This document shows, in pieces, positions 8,213 to 60,798 of a DNA stretch of 64,000 bases. The notes under the pieces were generated by a model. That model searched no databases, was not told the origin of the DNA, and was given only the letters and a program-made list of their open reading frames with translations. The translations under genes were made by a program, and so were the position numbers. The first letter of the stretch is position 1, and each line of letters opens with the position of its first letter. The DNA comes from an uncultured bacterium. Its GTDB lineage: Bacteria; Patescibacteriota; Minisyncoccia; Phycocordibacterales; DATDWN01. Location of the stretch: the NCBI GenBank assembly GCA_963727715.1, contig CAVSGX010000006.1, positions 12,632 through 76,631 of the forward strand, in the 5' to 3' direction.

Positions 8213-10135
8213 TTACTTATTATCTTCAGGTTTCTTCTCCTCAAAATCCGCGTCTCTCACTGGACCTTCGCCTTCTTTAGGTGGGGTTTGGCCTCCTTGC
8301 GACTGCGCTTGTTCCTGTGCGAATTTGTTCAGAATTTCACCGATTTTGGAAAGCTCGGTGGACAGATCAGATGTAGATTTTTTAATCAGCTCCATATCCT
8401 CGCCATCTTTGGCTTTTTTCAAATCAGTGATTTTATTTTCAATTGAAACTCTCAACTCGGCCGGCACTTTCTCTCCTGCGTCGCGCAGAGATTTTTCCGA
8501 AGTGTAGATGAGTTGTTCACCGATGTTTTTGGCCTCGGCCAAATCGCGCTTTTTCTGGTCGTCGGCAGCGTGAGCTTCGGCGTCCTTCTGCATTTTCTCA
8601 ATGTCTTCTTTTGACAAGCCGGAGCGAGCTTCAATGCGGATGGACTGTTCCTTGCCAGTAGCTTTGTCCTTGGCTTTAACAGCCAAGATGCCGTTGGCGT
8701 CCACATCAAATGTCACCTCAATCTGTGGCATACCGCGAGGGGCTGGCGGAATGCCGTCGAAGATAAATCGCCCAAGTGTTTTGTTGTCGCCCGCCATGGC
8801 TCGCTCACCTTGCACGATGTGAATTTCCACAGACGTCTGATTGTCCGAGGCTGTGGAGAAAATTTGCGAACGCGATGCCGGGATGGTGGTGTTGCGTTCT
8901 ATCAGTTTCGTCGCCACCGAGCCCATCGTCTCAATGCCGAGCGAAAGCGGAATGACATCCAGAAGCAAAACATCTTTGACATCGCCGGCCATAATTCCAC
9001 CTTGAATGGCCGCGCCGAGAGCCACCACTTCGTCCGGATTGATGGACTTGTTCGGTTCCTTGCCGAAAAATTCTTTGACCCTTTCAGCCATTTTCGGCAT
9101 GCGGGTTTGCCCGCCGACCAGAATGACTTCGTTTATTTGCGCCGTTGAGTAGCCGGAAGCATCCATCGCTCGTTTGGTTATCATCATGGCTCGATCAATG
9201 AATTCCGCGCAAAGCTCTTCCAGTTTGGCTCGAGAAAGCTTGATCAGCAAGTGTTTCGGGCCGGAGGCGTCCGAGGTGATGAACGGGATGTTGATTTCCG
9301 ACTCCATAGCGCTGGAAAGCTCAATTTTGGCCTTCTCAGCCGCTTCGTCGAGGCGTTGCAGGGCCAGCATATCCGTGCGCAAATCAATGCCTGATTCCTT
9401 TTTGAATTCATCGGCCAAGTAGTTTATGATTTTCTGATCAATATCTTTTCCGCCGAGATGTGAGTCGCCATCAGTTGATTTGACTTTAATGTCGCCACCA
9501 ACTTCATCCACATCCACTTCCAAAATGGAAACATCAAATGTTCCGCCACCGAAGTCAAAGACCACGATTTTTTCATCCTTGTGGTTTTTATCAAATCCGT
9601 AAGCCAGCGCCGCAGCGGTCGGCTCGTTGATGATGCGTTTGACATCGAGGCCGGCGATTTGTCCGGCATCTTTGGTGGCCTGTCTTTGCGAATCGTTGAA
9701 ATAAGCCGGCACGGTGATGATGGCTTCTGTTACCTTCTGGCCGAGTTTGGCCTCGGCATCGGTTTTCAGTTTTCCGATAATCATGGCCGAAATTTCCTCC
9801 GGCGTGTATTCCTTGTCGTTCATTTTGACTTTGACCCCGCCGGTGCCGGATTTCAAAACTTCAAACGGCACAATGGCTTTGTCTTTCTGCACGCCCGGAT
9901 CGTCAAATGTGTGGCCGATAAAGCGTTTGATGCCGAAAATGGTGTTTTTCGGGTTAGTCACGGCCTGACGCTTGGCCAAAAGCCCGACAATTCTCTCCCC
10001 TGTTTTGGAGATAGCCACAATGGACGGCGTTGTCCGCGCACCCTCGGCGTTCTCCAATATTTTTGGAGCTCCAACTTCCATGACTGCCACTGCGGAATTT
10101 GTGGTACCTAGATCGATCCCAATAATTTTACTCAT
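8213..10135 (-). CDS. dnaK: molecular chaperone DnaK (Hsp70)
   Basis: 640 aa; [28 protein letters not shown] and the remaining Hsp70 signatures. Confidence 0.95.
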
Positions 10136-10176
10136 ATTTTTTAATTTAATTAGATTTGTAAAACAAACAATAAATA

Positions 10177-10362
10177 ACCACTGAGTAAAATCTCCAGAAG
10201 AATTTCATTTTTGGAGGCTCCACAGGCACGGAGCACGGTTCTGTCAACGACCCGAGCAAAGCGAGGGCTCTTGACAGATCCGTGCCGAGGACAGCCGAGA
10301 ATGCCCGCTGGGGCATTTGAGGTTACTCCAAAAATGAAATTCTTCTGGAGATTTTACGATCG
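10177..10362. repeat. palindromic intergenic element, copy 1 of 3
   Basis: perfect 26-nt terminal inverted repeat tctccagaagaatttcatttttggag / ctccaaaaatgaaattcttctggaga enclosing a nested-palindrome core; homologous along its whole length to 11585..11764 and in its core to 53480..53675. Confidence 0.8.
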
Positions 10363-10366
10363 CAAA

Positions 10367-10669
10367 TTATAAAGTGGGCGCTCGAGGTTTAGAACCAGAA
10401 AAATATAAAATATCAAAATTAAAATAAGGTGAGACGATTTTGTTTTTGAAAATAACTTTGATCGGATATTTTTTCTCCAACTTGAAACCAGTCAGAACTG
10501 GAATTTTATTTTCTATTTCTCTGTATTCCTCCAAATAAACCGCGTTTAAAAGTCGCGCGCGGATGTGTCCACCGTTTTCATACACACAAAAAGACAGCCG
10601 AACCAGTCGCCCATCGGCGTCTCGCACCACCCTCTCCACAAAATTTCCTCTCGATCGTGTGATTTGCAT
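10367..10669 (-). CDS. hypothetical protein between grpE and dnaK
   Basis: 100-aa ORF, no recognised motif; occupies the position where hrcA-operon genes sit but is far too short for HrcA. Confidence 0.3.
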   Translation of the reverse strand: MQITRSRGNFVERVVRDADGRLVRLSFCVYENGGHIRARLLNAVYLEEYREIENKIPVLTGFKLEKKYPIKVIFKNKIVSPYFNFDILYFSGSKPRAPTL

Positions 10670-10943: not shown

Positions 10944-11612
10944 CTAGTTACTATTCACTTTCTTATACTCCCCCACTTTCACCTTCGGGGCGCGGATGAG
11001 TTTGTTGTGCAATTTGTAGCCGGAGTTAATCACTTCTAAAATTTTACCGCCATCATCTTCATTTTCCACCTGCACGGTTTCTACTGCCTCATCGCGGTTG
11101 TGATCAAACTTTTCACCGAGCGGATTTACCACCGTAAGCCCGTGTTGGGCCAAGGCGTTTGAAAGCTGTGTGTGGATGTATTCAACACCCTTTCGCCAAT
11201 TTTCATCAACTTTCTCCCAAGCATCTTTGTTTTTGAAAGCCGATTCAAATGAATCAAGTGTCTGCAAAAGTTCGGTAATGATATCCTCTTTGGCGAATGT
11301 GGCAAACTTTTTCTGATTTTCCTCATCTTGTCTTCGGGCATTTACAAAGTCCGCTTTGTCTTTTTGCCAGCCGAAAAGTAGCTCGGCATTTTTCTTTTCC
11401 AGTTCTTTAATTCTCTCTTTCAGTTGTTTGACCTTCTGTGCGCTATCCGGTCCGGTCACTTCGGTGTTATCCTCAAACACAAAATCATCTCCAGCGTCGG
11501 TGTCCACCTCCGGTTCCTTTTCCTCTATCTCATTTTTTTTAATTTGGTTTGAATCGTCGTTCATGTAGGTATGATAGCAAAAAATTACCGCTGAGTAAAA
11601 TTTCCGAAACAT
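10944..11612 (-). CDS. grpE: nucleotide exchange factor GrpE
   Basis: 222 aa; coiled-coil N-terminus and GrpE C-terminal signature (FDHNRDEAVETVQVE...SGYKLHNKLIRAPKVKV); true start may be the internal MNDDS. Confidence 0.8.
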   Translation of the reverse strand: MFRKFYSAVIFCYHTYMNDDSNQIKKNEIEEKEPEVDTDAGDDFVFEDNTEVTGPDSAQKVKQLKERIKELEKKNAELLFGWQKDKADFVNARRQDEENQKKFATFAKEDIITELLQTLDSFESAFKNKDAWEKVDENWRKGVEYIHTQLSNALAQHGLTVVNPLGEKFDHNRDEAVETVQVENEDDGGKILEVINSGYKLHNKLIRAPKVKVGEYKKVNSN

Positions 11613-11764
11613 TTATTTTTCGAAGCATACGCAGGCGAGGAGCCGGTTTTGTCAATGACCCGAGCAAAGCGAGGACTCTTGACAAATCCGAGCCGAGGAC
11701 CGAGAAAGCTCGGCGCTGGCCGAGCTTTCGTCTTTGAAAAATAAATGTTTTGGAAATTTTATCG
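11585..11764. repeat. palindromic intergenic element, copy 2 of 3
   Basis: terminal inverted repeat tttccgaaacatttatttttcgaag / ctttgaaaaataaatgttttggaaa; core catacgcaggcgaggagccggttttgtcaatgacccgagcaaagcgaggactcttgacaaatccgagccgaggaccgag nearly identical to copy 3. Confidence 0.8.
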
Positions 11765-12163
11765 TTTCGACCACTTCGGCGCCTTCCTTGCTTTCTTCAA
11801 ACCGAATTTGCGTCGTTCTTTGGCACGCGGATCGCGCTTGAGCATCCCTTCTTTTTTCAGTGGTTTGCGAAGTTCGCCGGAGTGTTTGACCAGAGCCCTG
11901 GCGATACCATGACGCAGAGCTTCGGATTGTGAGTGAATTCCTCCGCCGACTATTTTGGCTGTCACTTTGAATTTCTCTGAAATATTTTCTAGAAATGGTT
12001 CACGGGCAATTTCCTGCATCTCTTCCACCGGAAAATATTGGTGCAATTCTTTTTCATTTATGATAATACTGTTTTTGGTGGCCGGTGTTAGGCGCACGCG
12101 AGCAATGGAAGTCTTGCGACGGCCGACAGCCTCAACGTATTTTTCTGTTTTTGTTTCTGCCAT
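11759..12163 (-). CDS. rpsI: 30S ribosomal protein S9
   Basis: 134 aa; GRRKTSIARVRL and C-terminal KKARKAPKWSKR. Confidence 0.9.
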   Translation of the reverse strand: MAETKTEKYVEAVGRRKTSIARVRLTPATKNSIIINEKELHQYFPVEEMQEIAREPFLENISEKFKVTAKIVGGGIHSQSEALRHGIARALVKHSGELRKPLKKEGMLKRDPRAKERRKFGLKKARKAPKWSKR

Positions 12164-32715: not shown

Positions 32716-32828
32716 AAAGATATTGTATCACCTTTTAATTTTGCTTTTTTACCCAACTTTGATATTATGGAATTGCGCAAAAACGCGCAAACATTCCGCG
32801 GTAGCTCAGTGGTAGAGCGATCGCCTGT

Positions 32829-33436
32829 GTCGAAAGGTTCTGTGGTATACTTTATATATGTATACCAAAAAAAAAAGAAACCAGAACCTATGCCGACCGT
32901 GCCGAGTATATGCGCATGGCCGTAAAACGTAGAAGAAAAAAACTTCGCGAAATGGCCAGAGCATCCAAAGGCAATAAATGTGCAATCTGCGGTTACAAAA
33001 AGTGTCAACGAGCTTTAAGTTTTCATCATATAAATCCTTCCAAAAAAGAGTTTGATCTGTCATCAAGAGGACTGACCAGATCTTGGAAGAAAATAGAAAA
33101 TGAAATTGAAAAATGTATTCTCGTTTGTGCTAATTGTCACGCAGAAATACATGACGGCATTACGCAGCTTCCTAAAGTAATTTAGGTTGAAAAATGAGGT
33201 GAATTGCTGGAAACCCTAATCTCGCAAAAGAAGGGCAATCAGCAGCCAAGTCCCTCACCAGATTTGTTTTGAAAATTTTCAAGACAAATCTGGTGAGGGG
33301 AAGGTTCAGAGACTATCTCGCAAGAGAGTAGCCCGATGCAAATCGGTCGAAGCGCCCCACATCCGACTAAATTTTTGAAAACGAAAATTTTAGGGATGAT
33401 GATATAGTCCATCCCAGAAGAAACTCTGGATTCTAT
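32829..33436 (+). other. group I intron (~608 nt) with an HNH homing-endonuclease ORF
   Basis: conserved group I core elements: P aattgctggaaa (33211), Q aatcagcagcc (33240), R gttcagagacta (33304), S gatgatatagtcc (33393), a long P6 hairpin, and a terminal G before the 3' exon. The 5' exon ends in U. The HNH ORF lies in the 5' peripheral region. Confidence 0.8.
32910..33185 (+). CDS. HNH homing endonuclease (intron-encoded)
   Basis: 91 aa; CAICGYKKC...HHINP...N...CANCHAEIH, the classic HNH/His-Me finger with two zinc-binding Cys pairs. Confidence 0.75.
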   Translation: MRMAVKRRRKKLREMARASKGNKCAICGYKKCQRALSFHHINPSKKEFDLSSRGLTRSWKKIENEIEKCILVCANCHAEIHDGITQLPKVI

Positions 33437-33463
33437 GTAAGCGATTGGTCGTAGGTTCGATCC

Positions 33464-34948
33464 CTACCCGCGGAGCCAAATTGTATGTTGCGAGTTTATT
33501 GCCTCGGCGCTTCGCGCCTCGGCAGGCAGATTGTATAGTATTTGCCAAGATTTTTTGGGTTCAATCGCCACTTTTTGCGAAAGCAAAACGCGGTTCGAGC
33601 CAATCCTTTTGAGAAAATCCCGTCCCGCGACGGGATTTTCTTGCAAAGCGATAATTTTGGCTTGTTGAGCCGCTAAAATGAATTGTCTTGCCGGTTCGAG
33701 CCAATGATTGCCGTTTCGCTCAAAATCCTTTGATTTTTCGGAAAGCTCGGATTTTTCGTTGATGATTTTTTCTTTTTTAGCGGTATATTCCTCGCGCGAA
33801 ATTGTGCCGTCCAAATGCGCGTCTAAAAGCAGGTCGAGCTTTCCTTCAAGCTCTTTTATTTTGTCTTTAAGATTTTGAGCGAAAACGGCTCCGCTTTGGG
33901 CGGCTTCCGCTTCTTCCTTGTTTAATTCGCCTGAGCATCCACTCCGCCCAAGCGGAAGACAAAGAAACTTTTTGAAGCTCGTTTGAAACTTCTGGCGGCC
34001 AAAACTTCCTCGCGGATATATTTTTGCGAACATTGATTATCCCGCTTTTTGGTGCAACGATAATAGTTATGTCCTTTTTGCGTTTCGGAAGTGATGGCGC
34101 ATCCGCACTCTCCGCAAACGAGCATATTCCTAAACGGATATTCTTTTTGGCTCGGCTTTTTCGGGCGCGAACGATCCGCCATAACTTTTTGGCACGCTTC
34201 AAAAAGTTTCTTTGGAATCATTGGCTCGTGCTTTCCGTCATACATTTCGCCGTTGTATTTGAAAACTCCGTAATAAAATGAATTGGAAAGTATGCTTTGG
34301 ATATTGGAGACGGAAAGCATATTTTTCTTTCGGCTCAACAAGCCGGCGGAAGTTATTAACTTCCGCACATCTTTCAGAGAATAATTGCCGGTTGCGTAAA
34401 GTTCAAAAATTTTGCGAACGAGGCGAAATCTTTCAGGGTCTTTATACATTGTATGCTTTAGCAAGTCGTTCAAATATCCAAGTGGCGCGTAGCCGGGCAA
34501 TTCGCCTCGGCGCAATTTTTGACGCAACCCTCGTTTTAGTATTCTCTGAAAGATTATCAACAAAGTATTTTGATTGCCCAAAAGCGATATTCAACATGAA
34601 TTTGCCTTGCGGGGTTGGCTCAAACCAAAATGTCGGGGATTTTAGCGCTTTGATTTTTCCCGTATCGATCAAGAAAATAATCCGTCCGCCGTCTATGCTG
34701 TTTCTCGCTAATCTGTCGGGGTGCCACGCTAAAATCCCCTCGGCTTCGCCGCTTTCCATTCGTTTGAGCATATCGTTAAAAATCGGTCTGCCCGGCTCTT
34801 TGGCAGTTTGTGATTCGCGAAAAGTCGCGGCGATCAAAAGATTTTCCCGCAAGGCAAATTCTTTCAATTCGGTTTCTTGCGCTTCCAGCGACAAAACTTG
34901 TCTGTCGTCCTCGTCCGTTGATTTTCTAATGTATAAAAAATATTTCAT
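33464..34948 (-). pseudogene. large serine recombinase split over three frames
   Basis: frame 1 (34442..34948): resolvase catalytic domain YIRKSTDEDDRQVLSLEAQ...HPDRLARN. Frame 2 (33922..34581): recombinase domain plus zinc ribbon GELPGYAPLGY...CGECGC...YYRC. Frame 3 (33464..34033): coiled-coil C-terminus. The two frame switches lie near 34530 and 33990. Confidence 0.75.
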
Positions 34949-35175: not shown

Positions 35176-35461
35176 AACGCTGAACGAAATCCGAACTTTT
35201 TTTAGCGAAAATCCGAACGCTGAATTTTGAAAAACTTTTAAGCTCGGGCGGGCAAAAAGGAAGGGGGTTGGGGGGAAGGAATTTTTGCCCGCCCTCGCTT
35301 TTCCGCCGCCGCCGAATTTCGTATTTCGCTTTGCGAAATGCGCCGCCAAAGAAGATGTTGCCCTTGCCCCAGCCCTCCCGTGCGCGGGCAACGACAAGGA
35401 ACTCCCTTTTAGTTTGCCAAATTTTAATATTTTTGATACCATTACATTAAGCAAGTTGATA

Positions 35462-41196: not shown

Positions 41197-41509
41197 TTTT
41201 GGCGGCGCGCCAGCTTCGCTGGCACAAAATTCGGCGGTGGCGGAAAAGCGAGGGCGGGCAAAAATTCCTTCCCCCCAACCCCCTTCCTTTTTGCCCGCCC
41301 GAGCTTAAAAGTTTTTCAAAATTCAGCGTTCGGATTTTCGCTAAAAAAAGTTCGGATTTCGTTCAGCGTTCGGAGCATAGAAATTATTTTGAGCAATATT
41401 GAGTATCTCATTGAACGGAGAACGCAATGAAATACAGGGTTTTTTACCATTCACAATACCCACATGAACCGGGAAAAAGTTGATTAAAATATTCCTACTT
41501 ATAAACGGT

Positions 41510-50522: not shown

Positions 50523-50665
50523 TTATCCGCACACTAACATTACCATCGCTTTTCTATTCTGCTTTGGAATATTTGTGTTATTTATATTTATTATTAAATT
50601 CGACATTTTATTTTGATGTTCACTGAAAAAGCAGAATAATGGCAATGTTAGTGTGCGGATTTATT
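50523..50665. repeat. solo inverted-repeat hairpin element related to the GIY-YIG element termini
   Basis: termini ttatccgcacactaacattaccat / atggcaatgttagtgtgcggat(aa) form a perfect 24-nt inverted repeat; inner second IR ttctattctgcttt/aaagcagaataa; fills the acd-porB intergenic space exactly. Confidence 0.75.
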
Positions 50666-51444: not shown

Positions 51445-51760
51445 TATCCCGCACACTAACTCTCATTTTGATTCGCCAGTGTGTCTTTTAATCTTAATTT
51501 TAATTGATTCCTTGCCTGACCACGTAATTTTAACATTTTTTCTCTTCTTCGCGAATCAGTTCCTACTTCATATGCTTCGTAATATATAAGTTTGTAAGGT
51601 TTCTTATTTTTTGTTGATTCAACCCCACCTTTATTATGTTCTATGATTCTACGTTTGAGATTATTTGTCGAACCGATGTAAAGCTGACCATATTTTTTAC
51701 TTTTTATCACATAGACATAGAACATAATGAAATGAGAGTTAGTGTGCGGATTTATTTTAA
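51445..51760. mobile_element. GIY-YIG gene cassette bounded by inverted repeats
   Basis: ttatcccgcacactaactctcatt (51445) and its reverse complement aatgagagttagtgtgcggat (51740) flank the GIY-YIG ORF; same terminal sequence family as 50523..50665. Confidence 0.7.
51456..51725 (-). CDS. GIY-YIG nuclease-domain protein (UPF0213/YhbQ-like)
   Basis: 89 aa; YVYVIKSKKYGQLYIGSTNNLKRRIIEHN matches the GIY-(10-11)-YIG...R...E...N catalytic motif. Confidence 0.8.
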   Translation of the reverse strand: MFYVYVIKSKKYGQLYIGSTNNLKRRIIEHNKGGVESTKNKKPYKLIYYEAYEVGTDSRRREKMLKLRGQARNQLKLRLKDTLANQNES

Positions 51761-53464
51761 AATTTTGTTAATTTGTTCAGAGAGTTCAGTCGGATCAAAA
51801 GGTACAGAATCATATTTCAAAATTTTATCAACAATTTCAATCCCTGTTTTTTCCATAATCAATCCAGCCAATTGGGCGTTGTGATTCCCCTCCACACAAA
51901 TTATTTTTTTAGCGCCAACCAATTCTTTTTTTATTTTTTCTGTGTCAAAGGGCTCTAACCAAACGATTTGCAAAAATTTTGCCGGCTTTTCAAAATATTT
52001 TGACGCTTCCAAGACTGCGCTTTTTGTTGAGCCGAAAAAGACAATTACATTTTCGCTACCTGTGTCGCCGTACATTTTGACTGTCTCCCTACTTTGCATT
52101 TCTGTCTCGATGGTTTTTCCTTTTGCGAATCTTTTGTCAAGCATTGCTTTGACTTCGGCTGGTTTGTCCGTTGTAATTCCATATTCGTCATGTTCGTAGC
52201 TCGTCACTTTAACCACGGCGTTTTTCGTACCCGGGAAAGCCAAAGGTGAGACACCGTCTGGAGTGATTTGATAGCGAGCATAATTCTCCCCTGCATCTTT
52301 GGCGATTTTACCACTTTCCGCCGAAACTGATTTTTTATCAATATCGCAAGTCATCATGTGTTCGGACAAAATTTTATCCAAGAGAACAATCACTGGTGTT
52401 TGAAATTTCCATGCCAAATTCAGAGATTCGGCCCCGGCCAGAAAACTTTCTTCCGGATCGCCAGGAGCGAGAACAATTCGTGGAAACTCGCCGTGGCCTC
52501 CATGCAAAGCAAAACGCAAATCGGATTGCGACGAATGTGTGGGCAAACCGGTGGCTGGCGCTTGGCGTTGCGAAACAGCCACAACAAGTGGCAACTCGGC
52601 ACCACCGGCGAAAGACAAAGCTTCCTGCATCAGAGCGAAACCGCCTGTGGCCGAGCCAACGGCCACGCGTTTGCCAGCGTAGGCCATGCCGAGCGCCATG
52701 TTAATAACTGAAATCTCATTTTCCGGCTGAATGACTTTGAGACCATCTTTTTTTTGTTGTGTGGCGAGATAATGCAAAATGCTGGATGACGGCGTCATCG
52801 GATATGCAATATAGAAATTCAAACCCGCACTTTGCAAACCTTTGGCGAAAGCAGTGTTGCCGTCGAGAAATTCTCCATGCACTTCTCCAGGCTCAAGTTT
52901 TTTACTATGTCGGAAATTTATTTTTTGTAAATACCAGTAACCAACCTCGGCCAGCTTCTCATTTATTTTCGGCATTTTGTCAGCAAAAACCATTTTCAAA
53001 ATTTCCGCCATTTTTGGAAGTGGCAAATCCAAAAGATAGCACAACGCGCCAAGAGCGACGGAATTTCTGGTAATAGCCGGTGCCGAAATCTCTGCCACCG
53101 CGCTTTTCATCGGCACCAGCACGGCGTTTTCTCCGAGTGTTGCGATATCACTGGGTTCAAACTCATCGGCAAAAACAATACCGTTTGAGGCAAGCTCACC
53201 GAGGTGCAGTTTGACCGTTTCTTCGTTTAGCGCGATCAGAACATCGAGTGGCGCGTGGTCGCACCAGACTTTTTGTTTGGAAAAAGTTAGTCGTGTGAAG
53301 TTGTGTCCACCGCGAATGAGCGATGGATAGTCGGTTGACAGGTAGACTTCATAGCCGAGATCACGCAAAAGTAGTCCCAAGTTTGATCCGGCTTCCATCA
53401 CCCCATCGCCGGCCGCTCCACCTATGCCGATTGTGAAAATATTATTGTCTAAATTTTGGGTCAT
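51752..53464 (-). CDS. 2-oxoacid:ferredoxin oxidoreductase alpha subunit with fused N-terminal gamma domain
   Basis: 570 aa; N-terminal gamma-type domain (IGIGGAAGDGVMEAGSNLG), then alpha domains; immediately upstream of the beta subunit. Confidence 0.8.
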   Translation of the reverse strand: MTQNLDNNIFTIGIGGAAGDGVMEAGSNLGLLLRDLGYEVYLSTDYPSLIRGGHNFTRLTFSKQKVWCDHAPLDVLIALNEETVKLHLGELASNGIVFADEFEPSDIATLGENAVLVPMKSAVAEISAPAITRNSVALGALCYLLDLPLPKMAEILKMVFADKMPKINEKLAEVGYWYLQKINFRHSKKLEPGEVHGEFLDGNTAFAKGLQSAGLNFYIAYPMTPSSSILHYLATQQKKDGLKVIQPENEISVINMALGMAYAGKRVAVGSATGGFALMQEALSFAGGAELPLVVAVSQRQAPATGLPTHSSQSDLRFALHGGHGEFPRIVLAPGDPEESFLAGAESLNLAWKFQTPVIVLLDKILSEHMMTCDIDKKSVSAESGKIAKDAGENYARYQITPDGVSPLAFPGTKNAVVKVTSYEHDEYGITTDKPAEVKAMLDKRFAKGKTIETEMQSRETVKMYGDTGSENVIVFFGSTKSAVLEASKYFEKPAKFLQIVWLEPFDTEKIKKELVGAKKIICVEGNHNAQLAGLIMEKTGIEIVDKILKYDSVPFDPTELSEQINKILK

Positions 53465-53479
53465 TAAAATATAATTTGG

Positions 53480-53675
53480 TAAATTTTGAATTTCAAAATT
53501 TCATCGAGTGCAAATGTTTTCCGGAGCATACGCAGGCGAGGAGCTGGTTTTGTCAATGACCTGAGCAAAGCGAAGGCTCTTGACAAATCCGAGCCGAGGA
53601 CCGAGTAAACTTTTCGCTGGAAAAGTTTACGTCTCCGGAAAACTTTTGCCGAGATGGGTTTTGAAATTCAAAATC
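53480..53675. repeat. palindromic intergenic element, copy 3 of 3
   Basis: core catacgcaggcgaggagctggttttgtcaatgacctgagcaaagcgaaggctcttgacaaatccgagccgaggaccgag is about 95% identical to copy 2, within its own terminal inverted repeat (attttgaatttcaaaa...gttttccggag / ctccggaaaac...ttttgaaattcaaaat); lies in the divergent porA/SDR promoter region. Confidence 0.8.
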
Positions 53676-53742
53676 GTGCACAATAATTATATCACTAACA
53701 TATGATATAATGAAAGCAATTATTATTTTCACAAAAACTTTC

Positions 53743-54486
53743 ATGTTTCAAAATAAAATCGCAATTGTCACAGGTTCTGCCAAAGGTATCGGCTACGGCA
53801 TCGCGCTTTATCTGGCCAAAAATGGCGCGAGCGTGGTCATGGCCGACTTTGACCAAGCGACAAACGAAAAATCAGCGACAGAAATCCAGTCCGCAACCGG
53901 CGCAAAGTGCCTGGCGGTGCAATGTGACGTTTCCAAAAAGGAAGATATTGATAATTTGATAAAAACCGCGATGGAAAAATTTGGCGGGGTGGATATTTTG
54001 GTCAACAACGCCGGCGTCTACCCTTTCAAACCATTTTTGGAAATGACAGAATCCGACTGGAACAAAGTCATTGATATAAATTTGAAAAGTATTTTCCTAG
54101 CTTCGCAAGCTGCAGCCAAAGTGATGAAAGACGGCAGTAAGATAGTCCAGATTTCTTCCATTGCTTCGCTCGTCGGCTTTGAAGGTTTGACACATTACTG
54201 TGCCAGTAAAGGTGGCATCAACAGTATGATTCGGGCAATGGCTTTGGAACTCGCTTCAAAAAAAATAAATGTCAATGCTATCGCGCCCGGTGCTATCAGA
54301 ACTCCTGGTGCGGACTGGGAATCAATGACCGAAGATGAAATGAAGAAGCAACTCTCCTTAATACCTTGGGGCAGGATAGGCACACCCGAAGACATTGCCG
54401 GCGCTGTCACATTCCTTTGCTCCCCTTCGGCCGATTACATCACTGGCCAAGTCGTTGTGGTGGACGGTGGCTGGACACTGCGATAA
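53743..54486 (+). CDS. short-chain dehydrogenase/reductase (FabG-like)
   Basis: TGSAKGIGYGIA Rossmann motif, NNAG, catalytic YCASK; start set at MFQNK. Confidence 0.8.
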   Translation: MFQNKIAIVTGSAKGIGYGIALYLAKNGASVVMADFDQATNEKSATEIQSATGAKCLAVQCDVSKKEDIDNLIKTAMEKFGGVDILVNNAGVYPFKPFLEMTESDWNKVIDINLKSIFLASQAAAKVMKDGSKIVQISSIASLVGFEGLTHYCASKGGINSMIRAMALELASKKINVNAIAPGAIRTPGADWESMTEDEMKKQLSLIPWGRIGTPEDIAGAVTFLCSPSADYITGQVVVVDGGWTLR

Positions 54487-55800: not shown

Positions 55801-56008
55801 TTTTCAAAATCTCGTTTGCCAAAAACTTTTCCGGCACATTGCGCAGGCAATTTAGAAAACAATGACGCAGACCTGAGTGGCACAGGTCGAGGAGATTGTT
55901 TTCTTAGATTGACGAGCAGGAAGAAAATTTTCACCAGAAAATTATTCTGGTGATGGAAAAGATTTTGGTAATAAGAGATTTTGAAAAATTACAAATAACA
56001 AAAATATT

Positions 56009-57322
56009 ATGCACAGCTTTGATCTAAACATGGAGCACATCACTAAAGTGGAAGGTAATGCTTCCCTATCGCTCAAAGTGGAGGATGGTAAAGTTACGGA
56101 TGTTAAATTCGCCATCGTTGAATACAAACGCTTTTTCACTGAGGCGCTGAAAGACAAAGTCATAGCAGCTGTTCCGCAACACTTGGCGCGCATTTGCGGG
56201 ACCTGTTCTAACGCGCACATCATGTGCAGTATTGAAGCTTGCGAGGATGCACTCGGAATTACACCTAGCGAGCAAACAAAACTTCTGCGCGCGCTTGTGA
56301 TGCATGGGCTTATCATACGCGACCACGCTTTGCATTTGTATTTGTTTTCAATGCCGGACATTTTCGGCAAGGATGCATTTCTGGACCTTGATGAAAGTGA
56401 CTCCATTCAACACCAGCTCCTCCACGACGGTTTTGACACCAAATCGGCCGGCAACTTTTTAGCGACACTCATCGCCGGCAGAAGTGTGCATGCCACCTAC
56501 CCGATCATCGGCGGATTTTTGAAATTCCCCGACCATGCCGGTGTGGAAGAAGCGATAAAAAAACTAACCAACATCCGCCCCGCTGTTTTGCGATTAGTAG
56601 AAGTTTTCAAAAACGCGCCGTTCCATTTTGATCGTCAGACCAAATTTATAGCCCTTGTGCCAGAAAAAAGTTTTGGTTATACCGGTGGAGAGATAATCAC
56701 AAGCACTGGAGAAAAATTTACCGAAAAAGATTTTCGTTCGCATTTGGAACACACTGTTTTGCCATACTCGGAGGCTTCCGCTTATACATACCATGGCGAA
56801 GGTTACATGGTTGGCGCGCTGGCCCGAGTAAACTTGGCCAAGGACAAACTACACCCGAAAACAAAAGAGTCACTCGGCGCAACCCTGGACCTTTTCCCTT
56901 CCACGGACATTTTCCACAACAACCTGGCCCAAGCAATCGAGATTTTGCACTCTGTTGATGAGTCGATTGATATTTTAACGAACAACAAATTTGCGCCGGA
57001 GCCGATTGTCAAGGCAACAAAAACGGAAGGTGTCGGAGTTGGAGTCATTGAAGCTCCGCGCGGGACACTTTACCACAAGGTTGTTTTGGGGGCTGACGGC
57101 AAAGTCAGTGAGGGTGAAGTTGTCGTGCCGACAGGCCAGAATCAAGTCAATATAGAAAAAGATGTGGCAACTTTGGTCAACGGGCTTCTAGAAAAACCGG
57201 AATACGCTGACGGCTCGGACTCGGCCAAAGAAAAAATCGCATTTGAAATTGAAAAACTTATCCGCGCATACGACCCGTGTATGTCGTGCGCATCTCACTT
57301 TTTGAAGATTGACTGGCAGTGA
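56009..57322 (+). CDS. [NiFe]-hydrogenase large subunit
   Basis: 437 aa; N-terminal nickel-binding motif RICGTCSNAH and C-terminal DPCMSCASH followed by a 7-aa extension. Confidence 0.8.
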   Translation: MHSFDLNMEHITKVEGNASLSLKVEDGKVTDVKFAIVEYKRFFTEALKDKVIAAVPQHLARICGTCSNAHIMCSIEACEDALGITPSEQTKLLRALVMHGLIIRDHALHLYLFSMPDIFGKDAFLDLDESDSIQHQLLHDGFDTKSAGNFLATLIAGRSVHATYPIIGGFLKFPDHAGVEEAIKKLTNIRPAVLRLVEVFKNAPFHFDRQTKFIALVPEKSFGYTGGEIITSTGEKFTEKDFRSHLEHTVLPYSEASAYTYHGEGYMVGALARVNLAKDKLHPKTKESLGATLDLFPSTDIFHNNLAQAIEILHSVDESIDILTNNKFAPEPIVKATKTEGVGVGVIEAPRGTLYHKVVLGADGKVSEGEVVVPTGQNQVNIEKDVATLVNGLLEKPEYADGSDSAKEKIAFEIEKLIRAYDPCMSCASHFLKIDWQ

Positions 57323-60435: not shown

Positions 60436-60768
60436 GATTTAGGGAACCCCTGCCCATGAGCCAGTGAGGAACCTGCTCTCCCGGCCCTCCCTCTACAAGC
60501 GTGTGGAGGGGAGGGAGTTTAGGGAACCCCTGCCCATGAGCCAGTGGGGGGCCTCCTCTCCCGCGGCCCTCCCCTCCACAAGTTGTGGAGCGGAGGGAGT
60601 TTGGCGAACCCCTTCCCATGAACCAGTGGGGAACCTCCTCTCCCCGCCCCTCCCCTCCACAAGTGTGTTGAGAGGGGAGGGAGTTTGGGAACCCCCGGCC
60701 ATGAACCGGTGAGGAACCTTCTCTCCCCCGGCCCTCCCCTCCACAAGTGTGTGGAGGGGAGGGAGCAG
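60436..60768. repeat. tandem array, about 4.3 copies of a ~78-bp unit with embedded hairpin
   Basis: unit gggagtttagggaacccctgcccatgagccagtg.ggaacct.ctctccc.gccctcccctccacaagtgtgtggaggggag; units are about 80-90% identical; each holds the palindrome ctcccctccacaag(t)gtgtggaggggag. Confidence 0.8.
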
Positions 60769-60798
60769 AGGAACGCGAAGAATTTTGTCGTGCGCCCG

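Follow-up and report, generated by a model that had tools for sequence, protein, structure and literature searches.

An apparently undescribed family of interspersed, structured intergenic elements in Patescibacteria

Genomic setting of the elements

The window analysed here, a stretch of 64,000 nucleotides from an uncultured member of the Patescibacteria (contig CAVSGX010000006.1, positions 12,632 to 76,631 of the forward strand), carries three copies of a long palindromic intergenic element and a fourth, divergent member of the same family. The genes around the three copies were assigned by Pfam as HSP70/DnaK (8213-10135, -), GrpE (10944-11612, -), ribosomal S9 (11759-12163, -), pyruvate:ferredoxin oxidoreductase (POR; 51752-53464, -) and SDR (53710-54486, +). 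An earlier, sequence-only reading of the window had described three copies with a common core, located 5' of dnaK, between grpE and rpsI and in the divergent POR/SDR region. That core has exactly three matches, all on the + strand (10241-10281 with 2 mismatches, 11649-11689 and 53550-53590 with 0), where none is expected by chance (100 shuffles). The extents were likewise borne out, the revised limits of 10185-10357, 11596-11761 and 53483-53674 lying a few bases inside those first given. The Pfam assignments agree with the locations, with the correction that copy 1 is situated between dnaK and a conserved 100-aa open reading frame (ORF). One hairpin of the element, P3, whose stem varies while its GCTG loop is constant in these three copies, had been missed, as had the fourth member.

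Architecture of the element

The minimum-free-energy fold is the same three-way junction in every copy examined, and most copies are 162-192 nt long. The structure is closed by a stem of ~30 bp, P1, the sequence of which varies from copy to copy and the base of which is flanked by A4 and T4. Most members outside the window have the distal P1 motif AAAAUCUC-GUYGA...GAGAAA-GAGAUUUU in common, which comprises an outer helix and, next to it, a conserved internal loop, GUYGA/GAGAAA. Three covarying pairs (ACC/GGU, CCC/GGG, CAU/AUG; read from the sequences by eye) carry P1 into the junction, where P2 has as its base a CCGCAG / YGAGG helix with one G.A mismatch, after which comes AC. Above this base P2 consists of a variable lower helix, the bulge AGCAUGGU, which is one-sided and invariant, the helix GUCAA/UUGAC and a tip of 22 nt (GACCYGAGCAAAGCGARGGCUC). 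The tip is an optional mini-hairpin with tandem G.A closing pairs, and its C-G pair is replaced by U-A in copy 3. In P3 the stem sequence is entirely free and the GCNG tetraloop is constant. The architecture is modular, in that the P2 tip occurs as a plain hairpin, as an expanded hairpin or cut to 3-4 bp, and P3 is sometimes missing. Two copies from different metagenomes (L014:308-560 and L022:1900-2143; L numbers denote the fetched loci) contain the same extra ~80-nt module of three hairpins between P2 and P3.

Copy 1 (10185..10357, +, 173 nt) scores 132.9 bits (E=1.3e-35) with the covariance model R1 described below. It extends between the start of dnaK on one side and the end of the 100-aa ORF on the other, antisense to both. 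Its P1 arms (10185..10216 and 10326..10357, +) pair at 32/32 positions and are thus 100% complementary, the 3' arm terminating in GGAGATTTTAC. The P2 hairpin (10225..10286, +) comprises the base GGCACGGA/TCCGTGCC, the bulge AGCACGGTT, the helix CTGTCAA/TTGACAG and the tip module GACCCGAGCAAAGCGAGGGCTC (10249-10270, +), and the P3 hairpin (10300..10317, +) is AATGCCC-GCTG-GGGCATT, with the junction sequence GAGGAC (10287-10292) on its 5' side. Copy 2 (11596..11761, +, 166 nt, R1 120.2 bits) reaches from the start of grpE to the stop of rpsI, again antisense to both, with the rpsI stop codon inside the final bases of the 3' arm. Its 30-nt P1 arms (11596-11625 / 11732-11761, +) are 93% (28/30) complementary, and both mismatches are G.T wobbles on the + strand. 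P2 (11634..11694, +) has the base GGCGAGGA/TCCGAGCC with tandem G.A and a tip module at 11657-11678, and P3 (11704..11729, +) is GAAAGCTCGGC-GCTG-GCCGAGCTTTC.

Copy 3 (53483..53674, +, 192 nt, R1 125.1 bits) occupies the divergent POR/SDR intergenic region. Here an internal loop splits P1 into an outer segment (53483-53498 / 53659-53674, +; 16/16 paired) and an inner segment (53510-53526 / 53633-53649, +; 16/17 paired). The outer inverted repeat noted earlier for each copy is present in all three. P2 spans 53535..53595 (+), with a compensated CCT...AGG pair in the tip module at 53558-53579, and P3 (53605..53630, +) is GTAAACTTTTC-GCTG-GAAAAGTTTAC. The fourth member (55801..55987, +) has a variant core and is flanked by two + strand ORFs. 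It displays the distal P1 motif of the family, CAAAATCTC-GTTTG...TAATAA-GAGATTTTG, the junction GCGCAG...GACGAGCAGGAAG and a P3 at 55931-55953; against R1 with filters off it reaches 14.7 bits (E=0.048), and it aligns with variants from L035, L037 and L021. The similarity among the window copies is mosaic: copies 2 and 3 have ~75 nt of core in common at ~95% identity with unrelated P1 and P3 stems, and the distal P1 of copy 2 is common to copy 1.

Several further structural or coding readings were considered and rejected. Pairing of the P3 loop with the P2 bulge in a pseudoknot was not borne out by any covariation when the variants were tabulated by eye, and on inspection the P1 internal loop and junction do not match the motif consensus of a K-turn, of sarcin-ricin or of attC. 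A peptide or toxin ORF inside the element is not retained either, the apparent ATG (ATGACC) being replaced by CAACGACC or CATAGACC in other copies, nor is an internal sigma-70 promoter built on the TTGACA of P2, for which there is no -10 box at the right spacing on either strand. The P1 arm of copy 1 has no other match in the rest of the window, leaving a guide-like role for the variable P1 unsupported there. Two mechanically called ORFs of 53-56 aa, at 10146-10316 (-) and 10211-10372 (+), lie wholly over copy 1 and are likely false gene calls; in the relative L033, gene callers have put short genes in neighbouring intergenic gaps.

Covariation and strand of selection

The pairing tests were performed on a sequence-only MAFFT alignment of 24 distinct copies. 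From this alignment RNAalifold derived 29 pairs, 17/29 of which display double compensatory changes. Standard pairs fill 97.4% of the pair cells, as compared to 78.3% in column shuffles (0/500 reach the observed value) and 28-48% when the 3' partners are slid along the alignment. Double-change cells number 141 where 40 are expected, and the covariation score is 0.544 vs 0.169. In a comparison of 30 copies every P1 arm was complementary to the partner arm of the same element, despite unrelated sequences. In a partner-specificity matrix the own partner was best in 20/30 cases; this matrix is blurred by the end motif common to the copies and by the flanks, and direct arm alignments were used instead. 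The proposal, originally based on three copies, that pairing rather than sequence is selected is consequently stronger with more copies. Its individual observations also hold. The TTGTCAA/TTGACAA halves pair, with a compensated change in copy 1 (CTGTCAA/TTGACAG), and of the outer-arm pairs that had been quoted TTTTTGGAG/CTCCAAAAA is paired throughout while TTTTTCGAAG/CTTTGAAAAA still pairs via one G.U.

The mismatches that do occur are strongly asymmetric with respect to strand. Read on the element strand, isolated transition mismatches in P1 are G.U in 16 cases and A.C in 1 (two of the sixteen G.U are common to the near-identical copies of L005 and L015), and those in P2/P3 are G.U in 12 cases and A.C in 3, giving a total of 28 G.U vs 4 A.C. 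For double-stranded DNA, or for a symmetric mutational mechanism alone, G.T and A.C are expected to be equally frequent on a given strand. The excess of G.U over A.C thus indicates that the selected form is a single strand of defined polarity. Copies lying antisense to both flanking genes, copies 1 and 2 of the window among them, display the same one-strand bias. As judged from these patterns the selected form is most likely single-stranded, with RNA from the element's own (+) strand as the simplest candidate. The earlier options of a structured RNA, a REP/MITE-like DNA element or a protein-binding site are thereby narrowed: a single-stranded form, most likely RNA, is favoured, and a double-stranded protein-binding site is disfavoured by the strand-asymmetric wobbles.

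Family size and taxonomic range

A degenerate core-pattern scan of 185,579 species genomes returned 8 loci, all from metagenome-assembled genomes (MAGs) of Patescibacteria, namely Minisyncoccia, Paceibacterota, Zambryskibacteria and one labelled Saccharibacteria. The core-pattern scan of metagenomes yielded 21 stretches. The covariance model R1 was constructed from the 24 distinct copies and found more diverged copies in the fetched loci; together, pattern scans and model gave ~40 further copies, all from Patescibacteria MAGs and metagenomes. No copy was detected in viral contigs by the core-pattern scans, or in phage and plasmid collections by blastn. Inside the fetched loci R1 revealed 5 copies in 13.8 kb of L021 and 3 in 8 kb of L008, pairs in L002, L003, L014 and L022, and more in loci syntenic around dnaK. 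The resulting density is approximately one copy per 10-20 kb when the copy by which each locus was found is discounted; the window, with a G+C content of 42%, has 4 in 64 kb.

The closest relatives of the window's DnaK are found in Zambryskibacteria, Paceibacterota and Minisyncoccia MAGs, which identifies the organism as a Patescibacteria (CPR) member of the Parcubacteria type. Six further syntenic loci were taken via such DnaK relatives, and L003 came from the genome scan. When the whole window, the window copies, and a canonical and an expanded copy were searched against Rfam 15 at gathering and permissive thresholds, no family reached its gathering score; the best scores on the elements were ~10-20 bits, none above 20.4, as compared to gathering scores of 38-114. 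Literature searches, including one with the core sequence as a text string, returned no description of the element. The family, with elements of 165-190 nt, is apparently specific to Patescibacteria (the candidate phyla radiation, CPR) and apparently undescribed.

Gain, loss and mosaic copies

Orthologous intergenic sites differ in whether, and with which variant, they are occupied. The site between rpsI and grpE is occupied in the window and in L032 (canonical, in the same orientation and with a related P3), in L036 (a variant that lacks P3) and in L037 (a mini variant), and it is empty in L030 and L034, the DnaK proteins of which are 93% and 91% identical to that of the window. The site between the 100-aa ORF and dnaK is occupied in the window and L003 (canonical), in L035 (a variant like the window's fourth copy) and in L037 (two variants). 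It is empty in L030 and L034, and in L036 no family member was detected there. Likewise, a site occupied in L028 is empty in L005. The empty sites in L030 contain plain hairpins of the A-run/stem/T-run type. In L034 the closest relative of window copy 2 is found at a different locus, just after dnaK, and the full-length copies of L005 and L015 are ~96% identical (by eye), P1 and one compensated pair included, with unrelated flanking genes. Conversely, some copies have remained at the same site over considerable divergence. The inverted pair of elements upstream of rplY occurs in both L014 and L021, where the flanking proteins are just 59-62% identical, and across the shared sites of window/L003 and L014/L021 flanking proteins are 50-84% identical. 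From these comparisons the copies would appear to be both long-lived and gained, lost or replaced. Copy-number polymorphism had been named in advance as an observation that would speak for a simple MITE. Presence/absence polymorphism indeed exists, and since it coexists with strong covariation the structured reading is not refuted; the structured-element and mobile-repeat readings are not exclusive.

Target-site duplications, the other feature named as incompatible with a structured element, were not seen: no consistent direct repeat was present in the inspected flanks of 30 copies, which are often mutual inverted repeats that continue the palindrome. The flanks of the L005/L015 pair contain at most 2-3 AT-rich bases that could be read as a repeat. 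The ends themselves are variable. The 8-bp ends AAAATCTC...GAGATTTT are common to most members and absent from window copy 3, the L009 and L021 copies and others, and at the element ends pairing runs outward via locus-specific bases, while the arm interiors are unrelated between copies. No copy with an internal ORF was found in ~340 kb of loci, and an end-motif scan for ORF-carrying (autonomous) versions returned only chance matches and one hairpin without a core. A solo P1 hairpin of this core-less kind lies at about 7130-7195 of L022.

Mosaic similarity of the kind seen between copies 2 and 3 is encountered elsewhere. The copies in L009 and L021_5596 have core and P3 in common, and not the distal P1, and the two L037 copies are identical in the core with P1 stems that differ by compensated pairs only. 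P2 is identical among the copies of one genome and different between genomes. This mosaic similarity within a genome could stem from gene conversion, or from insertion of the core module into existing hairpins.

Relation to neighbouring genes

The neighbours of the copies are housekeeping genes, including those for S2, L25, a release factor, RmuC, DnaK, POR and SDR. No transposase or reverse transcriptase was found beside the copies checked, by Pfam searches of the flanking ORFs and in the gene tables of the loci. With respect to their neighbours, 8 copies are antisense in a co-directional pair, 3-4 are sense, 4 lie in divergent and 5 in convergent regions, without clear bias. As all four orientation classes occur, the element is not a device of the 5' or 3' untranslated region. 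The location at dnaK and grpE was rejected as a functional clue on similar grounds: the copies adjoin various unrelated genes of housekeeping function, whatever the orientation, and at those sites the element is missing from some close relatives. The 100-aa ORF between grpE and dnaK (10367-10669, -) is conserved without a Pfam match and is syntenic in L003, L030, L032 and L034-L037, which makes it a possible uncharacterised component of the chaperone operon of these organisms.

Some elements that follow a gene on their own strand have a canonical short terminator ahead of them (in the flanks of L008, L021 and L027, and in L003), which fits a separate transcription unit. The plain bidirectional terminators of these genomes have the shape AAAATC...GATTTT, the same as the base of P1. 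The elements were, however, not called by a terminator scanner, for which the stem has to be G+C-rich and 5-20 bp long, the loop 3-8 nt and the T-run >=5 within 8 nt, because their loop is far too large and their T-run is 4 nt. Outward-facing -35-like hexamers (TTTACT, TTGAAA) emerge from the outer ends of elements 2, 3 and 4 (11571-11599, 53468-53496, 53661-53690 and 55981-56010) at the correct spacing to -10-like hexamers before grpE, POR, SDR and the ORF at 56009, although they amount to no more than matches to the consensus.

Comparison with known systems

Families such as REP/BIME/REPIN, ERIC, Correia/NEMIS, RUP and BOX are short, non-coding, multi-copy and intergenic, occur in either orientation and vary at orthologous sites. 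Such interspersed palindromic repeats and MITE-like elements can form long hairpins, and they often double as terminators or supply promoter hexamers; their ends are conserved (terminal inverted repeats, REP palindromes), and copies within a genome are alike over their full length. The lifestyle of the present element resembles that of REP, ERIC, Correia and MITE-like sequences, but its conservation is reversed, with a fixed centre and free stems. It further differs in its three-way junction, its invariant loops, the pervasive and strand-biased compensation, and the lack of target-site duplications and of any transposase or RAYT found. With 165-190 nt it also contrasts with REP/BIME/REPIN, which are imperfect palindromes of 20-40 nt with a conserved 5' tetranucleotide and are mobilised by a RAYT, and no Y1 transposase was found in its neighbourhoods.

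Rfam non-coding RNAs, including HEARO/omega RNA, are similar to the element in that junction and loops are conserved, the helices covary and peripheral domains are optional; the score against HEARO is, however, 16.8 bits, against a gathering score of 83. Integron attC sites are comparable in combining low sequence with high structure conservation, in their strand-specific single-stranded fold and in their layout, where a basal helix and an unpaired spacer lead to a second helix with a variable tip that is branched in some cases. Unlike attC, the element has no inverted RYYYAAC/GTTRRRY core sites. GTTGAAY is present in the 5' arm only, with the partner GAGAAAG, and the 3' arm, GAGAAAGAGATTTT, is not RYYYAAC-complementary. 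The mixed orientations, the lack of cassette arrays and the greater length are further differences. Retron msr-msd regions likewise have a terminal a1/a2-like pairing around one conserved and one variable hairpin within ~170 nt, but the present copies are dispersed by the tens among housekeeping genes and have no adjacent reverse transcriptase or effector (Pfam, flanking ORFs). Bidirectional intrinsic terminators have the A-run/stem/T-run geometry and the AAAATC...GATTTT at the base of P1 in common with the element, which differs from them in that a ~30-bp stem encloses a conserved structured domain of ~110 nt and the T-run is 4 nt.

Interpretation and alternative explanations

Our confidence is evenly divided over the reading we put forward, namely that these sequences constitute an interspersed structured-RNA element, new and specific to CPR, with terminator-like hairpins as its foundation. 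It would come and go in the manner of a mobile repeat, yet remain foldable on one strand, and a protein probably binds it. The stems would drift freely as long as pairing is kept, while the unpaired nucleotides stay fixed, and such fixed unpaired nucleotides are the signature of recognition by a protein or of a tertiary contact. Copies would be gained, lost and partly exchanged among intergenic sites, a lifestyle befitting a non-autonomous mobile or duplicative element, and despite this turnover resident copies would be kept foldable on one strand. In addition, P1 is predicted to stop transcription between closely packed genes or to insulate them from one another. Transcription, termination, the protein partner and the copying mechanism are the parts of this reading that we infer.

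A number of observations weigh against it. The -10 boxes upstream of the elements, compared with the mirrored downstream flank, are suggestive at most (p=0.057), and the fourth copy begins right after a stop codon, leaving no room for a promoter of its own. The T-run that follows P1 is just 4 nt and itself paired, which renders terminator activity uncertain. Copying of whole elements does not explain the mosaic similarity within genomes (copies 2/3, L009/L021 and the two L037 copies). With neither an autonomous partner nor target-site duplications found, the case for mobility consists of the site polymorphism and one near-identical pair. Finally, single-stranded DNA hairpins also tolerate G.T wobbles, and the strand bias may therefore be compatible with a strand-specific single-stranded DNA intermediate as well. 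More speculatively, and with considerable doubt, the copies might represent abundant paralogous genes for small RNAs that form a class of their own, new and peculiar to Patescibacteria, in which a ribonucleoprotein (RNP) partner would read the invariant bulge, loop and junction; the fast-evolving helices would then be identity or processing determinants, or the RNA would be a copying intermediate as in a SINE-like retroelement.

Much of the same evidence could be accommodated by ordinary trans-acting chromosomal small-RNA genes, e.g. for a CPR-specific RNP RNA, that are inherited vertically, undergo gene conversion and do not move. Strong covariation, invariant loops, the one-strand wobble bias and random orientation all agree with such genes, and so does the canonical terminator that can precede the element (L008, L021, L027, L003). 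Persistence at one intergenic site while flanking proteins have diverged to 50-84% identity (window/L003, L014/L021), the recurrence across genomes of subtypes with their own junction and P3, and a P2 that is uniform within and different between genomes, as concerted evolution predicts, point in the same direction. We nevertheless regard this explanation as unlikely, given relatives with 91-93% identical DnaK that have no element, or another variant, at the window's sites, the relative of copy 2 at another locus in L034, and the near-identical L005/L015 copies between unrelated neighbours; no conserved promoter was found either. Another candidate is a DNA transposon that moves via a single-stranded intermediate (IS200/IS605-PATE-like or another HUH substrate), where the fold is one of DNA and there is no RNA function. 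A strand-specific structure that tolerates G.T, and the lack of target-site duplications and sharp ends, as in IS200/IS605-type elements, are in line with this possibility, together with the presence/absence polymorphism and the near-identical pair at different loci. It appears distinctly unlikely all the same. No Y1/HUH or other transposase gene lies beside any copy checked, and the three-way junction, tandem G.A, one-sided 8-nt bulge and optional domains are typical of RNA and unlike known transposon ends. Moreover, inactive copies should decay, whereas old copies at shared sites are still fully paired, and there is no local orientation bias (-,+,-,-,+ in L021 and -,+,+ in L008).

The strand asymmetry likewise bears on the notion of long bidirectional intrinsic terminators or DNA palindromes, the arms of which are kept perfect by template-switch (quasipalindrome) correction. 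Such correction is strand-symmetric and does not predict 28 G.U vs 4 A.C, and it leaves the invariant unpaired nucleotides and the junction conserved across CPR classes unexplained. The arms are indeed often 100% complementary, the A4...T4 flanks and the AAAATC...GATTTT shape are those of plain terminators, plain hairpins occupy empty orthologous sites and core-less solo P1 hairpins exist; still, canonical short terminators stand right beside some elements (the second copy of L003, the rpsI site of L037), and we hold the chance of this explanation to be slim. A cis-regulatory heat-shock element for dnaK and grpE, be it an operator or an RNA thermometer, is suggested by the two window copies immediately 5' of these genes and by the occupied dnaK-proximal site in L003, L035 and L037. 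This can hardly be correct, since the strand under selection runs antisense to both genes, further copies lie beside genes for POR, SDR, S2, L25, a release factor and RmuC, and L030 and L034, with DnaK 91-93% identical, have no element at these sites. In addition, the CIRCE sequence TTAGCACTC-N9-GAGTGCTAA has no match in the window when up to 3 mismatches are allowed.

The genomes of Patescibacteria rank with the smallest and most streamlined among bacteria, and to our knowledge hardly anything has been learned of their non-coding RNAs. At ~170 nt per copy and one copy every 10-20 kb, the element makes up ~1% of the sampled sequence, and if that density holds genome-wide a genome of ~1 Mb would contain perhaps a few tens of copies. 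The element occurs in several CPR classes and displays textbook covariation with selection on one strand. It would represent either a successful selfish element, RNA-shaped and able to persist under strong deletion pressure, or a family of functional RNAs overlooked because the organisms are uncultured. Either way it offers a testable RNA target (partner, processing, termination), a marker of CPR genome dynamics and a caution for gene callers.

Other features of the window

An apparent tRNA gene split by a group I intron of ~600 nt is located at 32795-33475 (+). Its 5' half begins at 32795 (TCCGCGGTAGCTCAGTGGTAGAGC...), the Rfam Intron_gpI core spans 33117-33430, and the 3' half, comprising T arm, acceptor and CCA, ends near 33475; ARAGORN found no tRNA in the whole 64-kb window. 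A sequence of ~115 nt with the hairpin AAGCTCGGGCGGGCAAAAA...TTTTTGCCCGCCCTCGCTT occurs twice in inverted orientation, at 35200-35315 and 41230-41346, bracketing ~6 kb, and this pair may be the trace of an inverted duplication, or of a segment that is composite or invertible. At 60480-60770 there is a G+C-rich tandem repeat of ~88 nt, with ~3.5 units and the palindrome CCCTCCCCTCCACAAGTGTGTGGAGGGGAGGG in each unit, which is unlike the rest of the 42% G+C window. Finally, a 22-nt inverted repeat (21/22), ATCCGCACACTAACATTACCAT/ATGGCAATGTTAGTGTGCGGAT, at 50525-50546 / 50639-50660 coincides with the apparent 5' ends of two divergent ORFs whose N-termini are the same, and this arrangement is found also at L005:1325-1470, in an unrelated Paceibacterota MAG.

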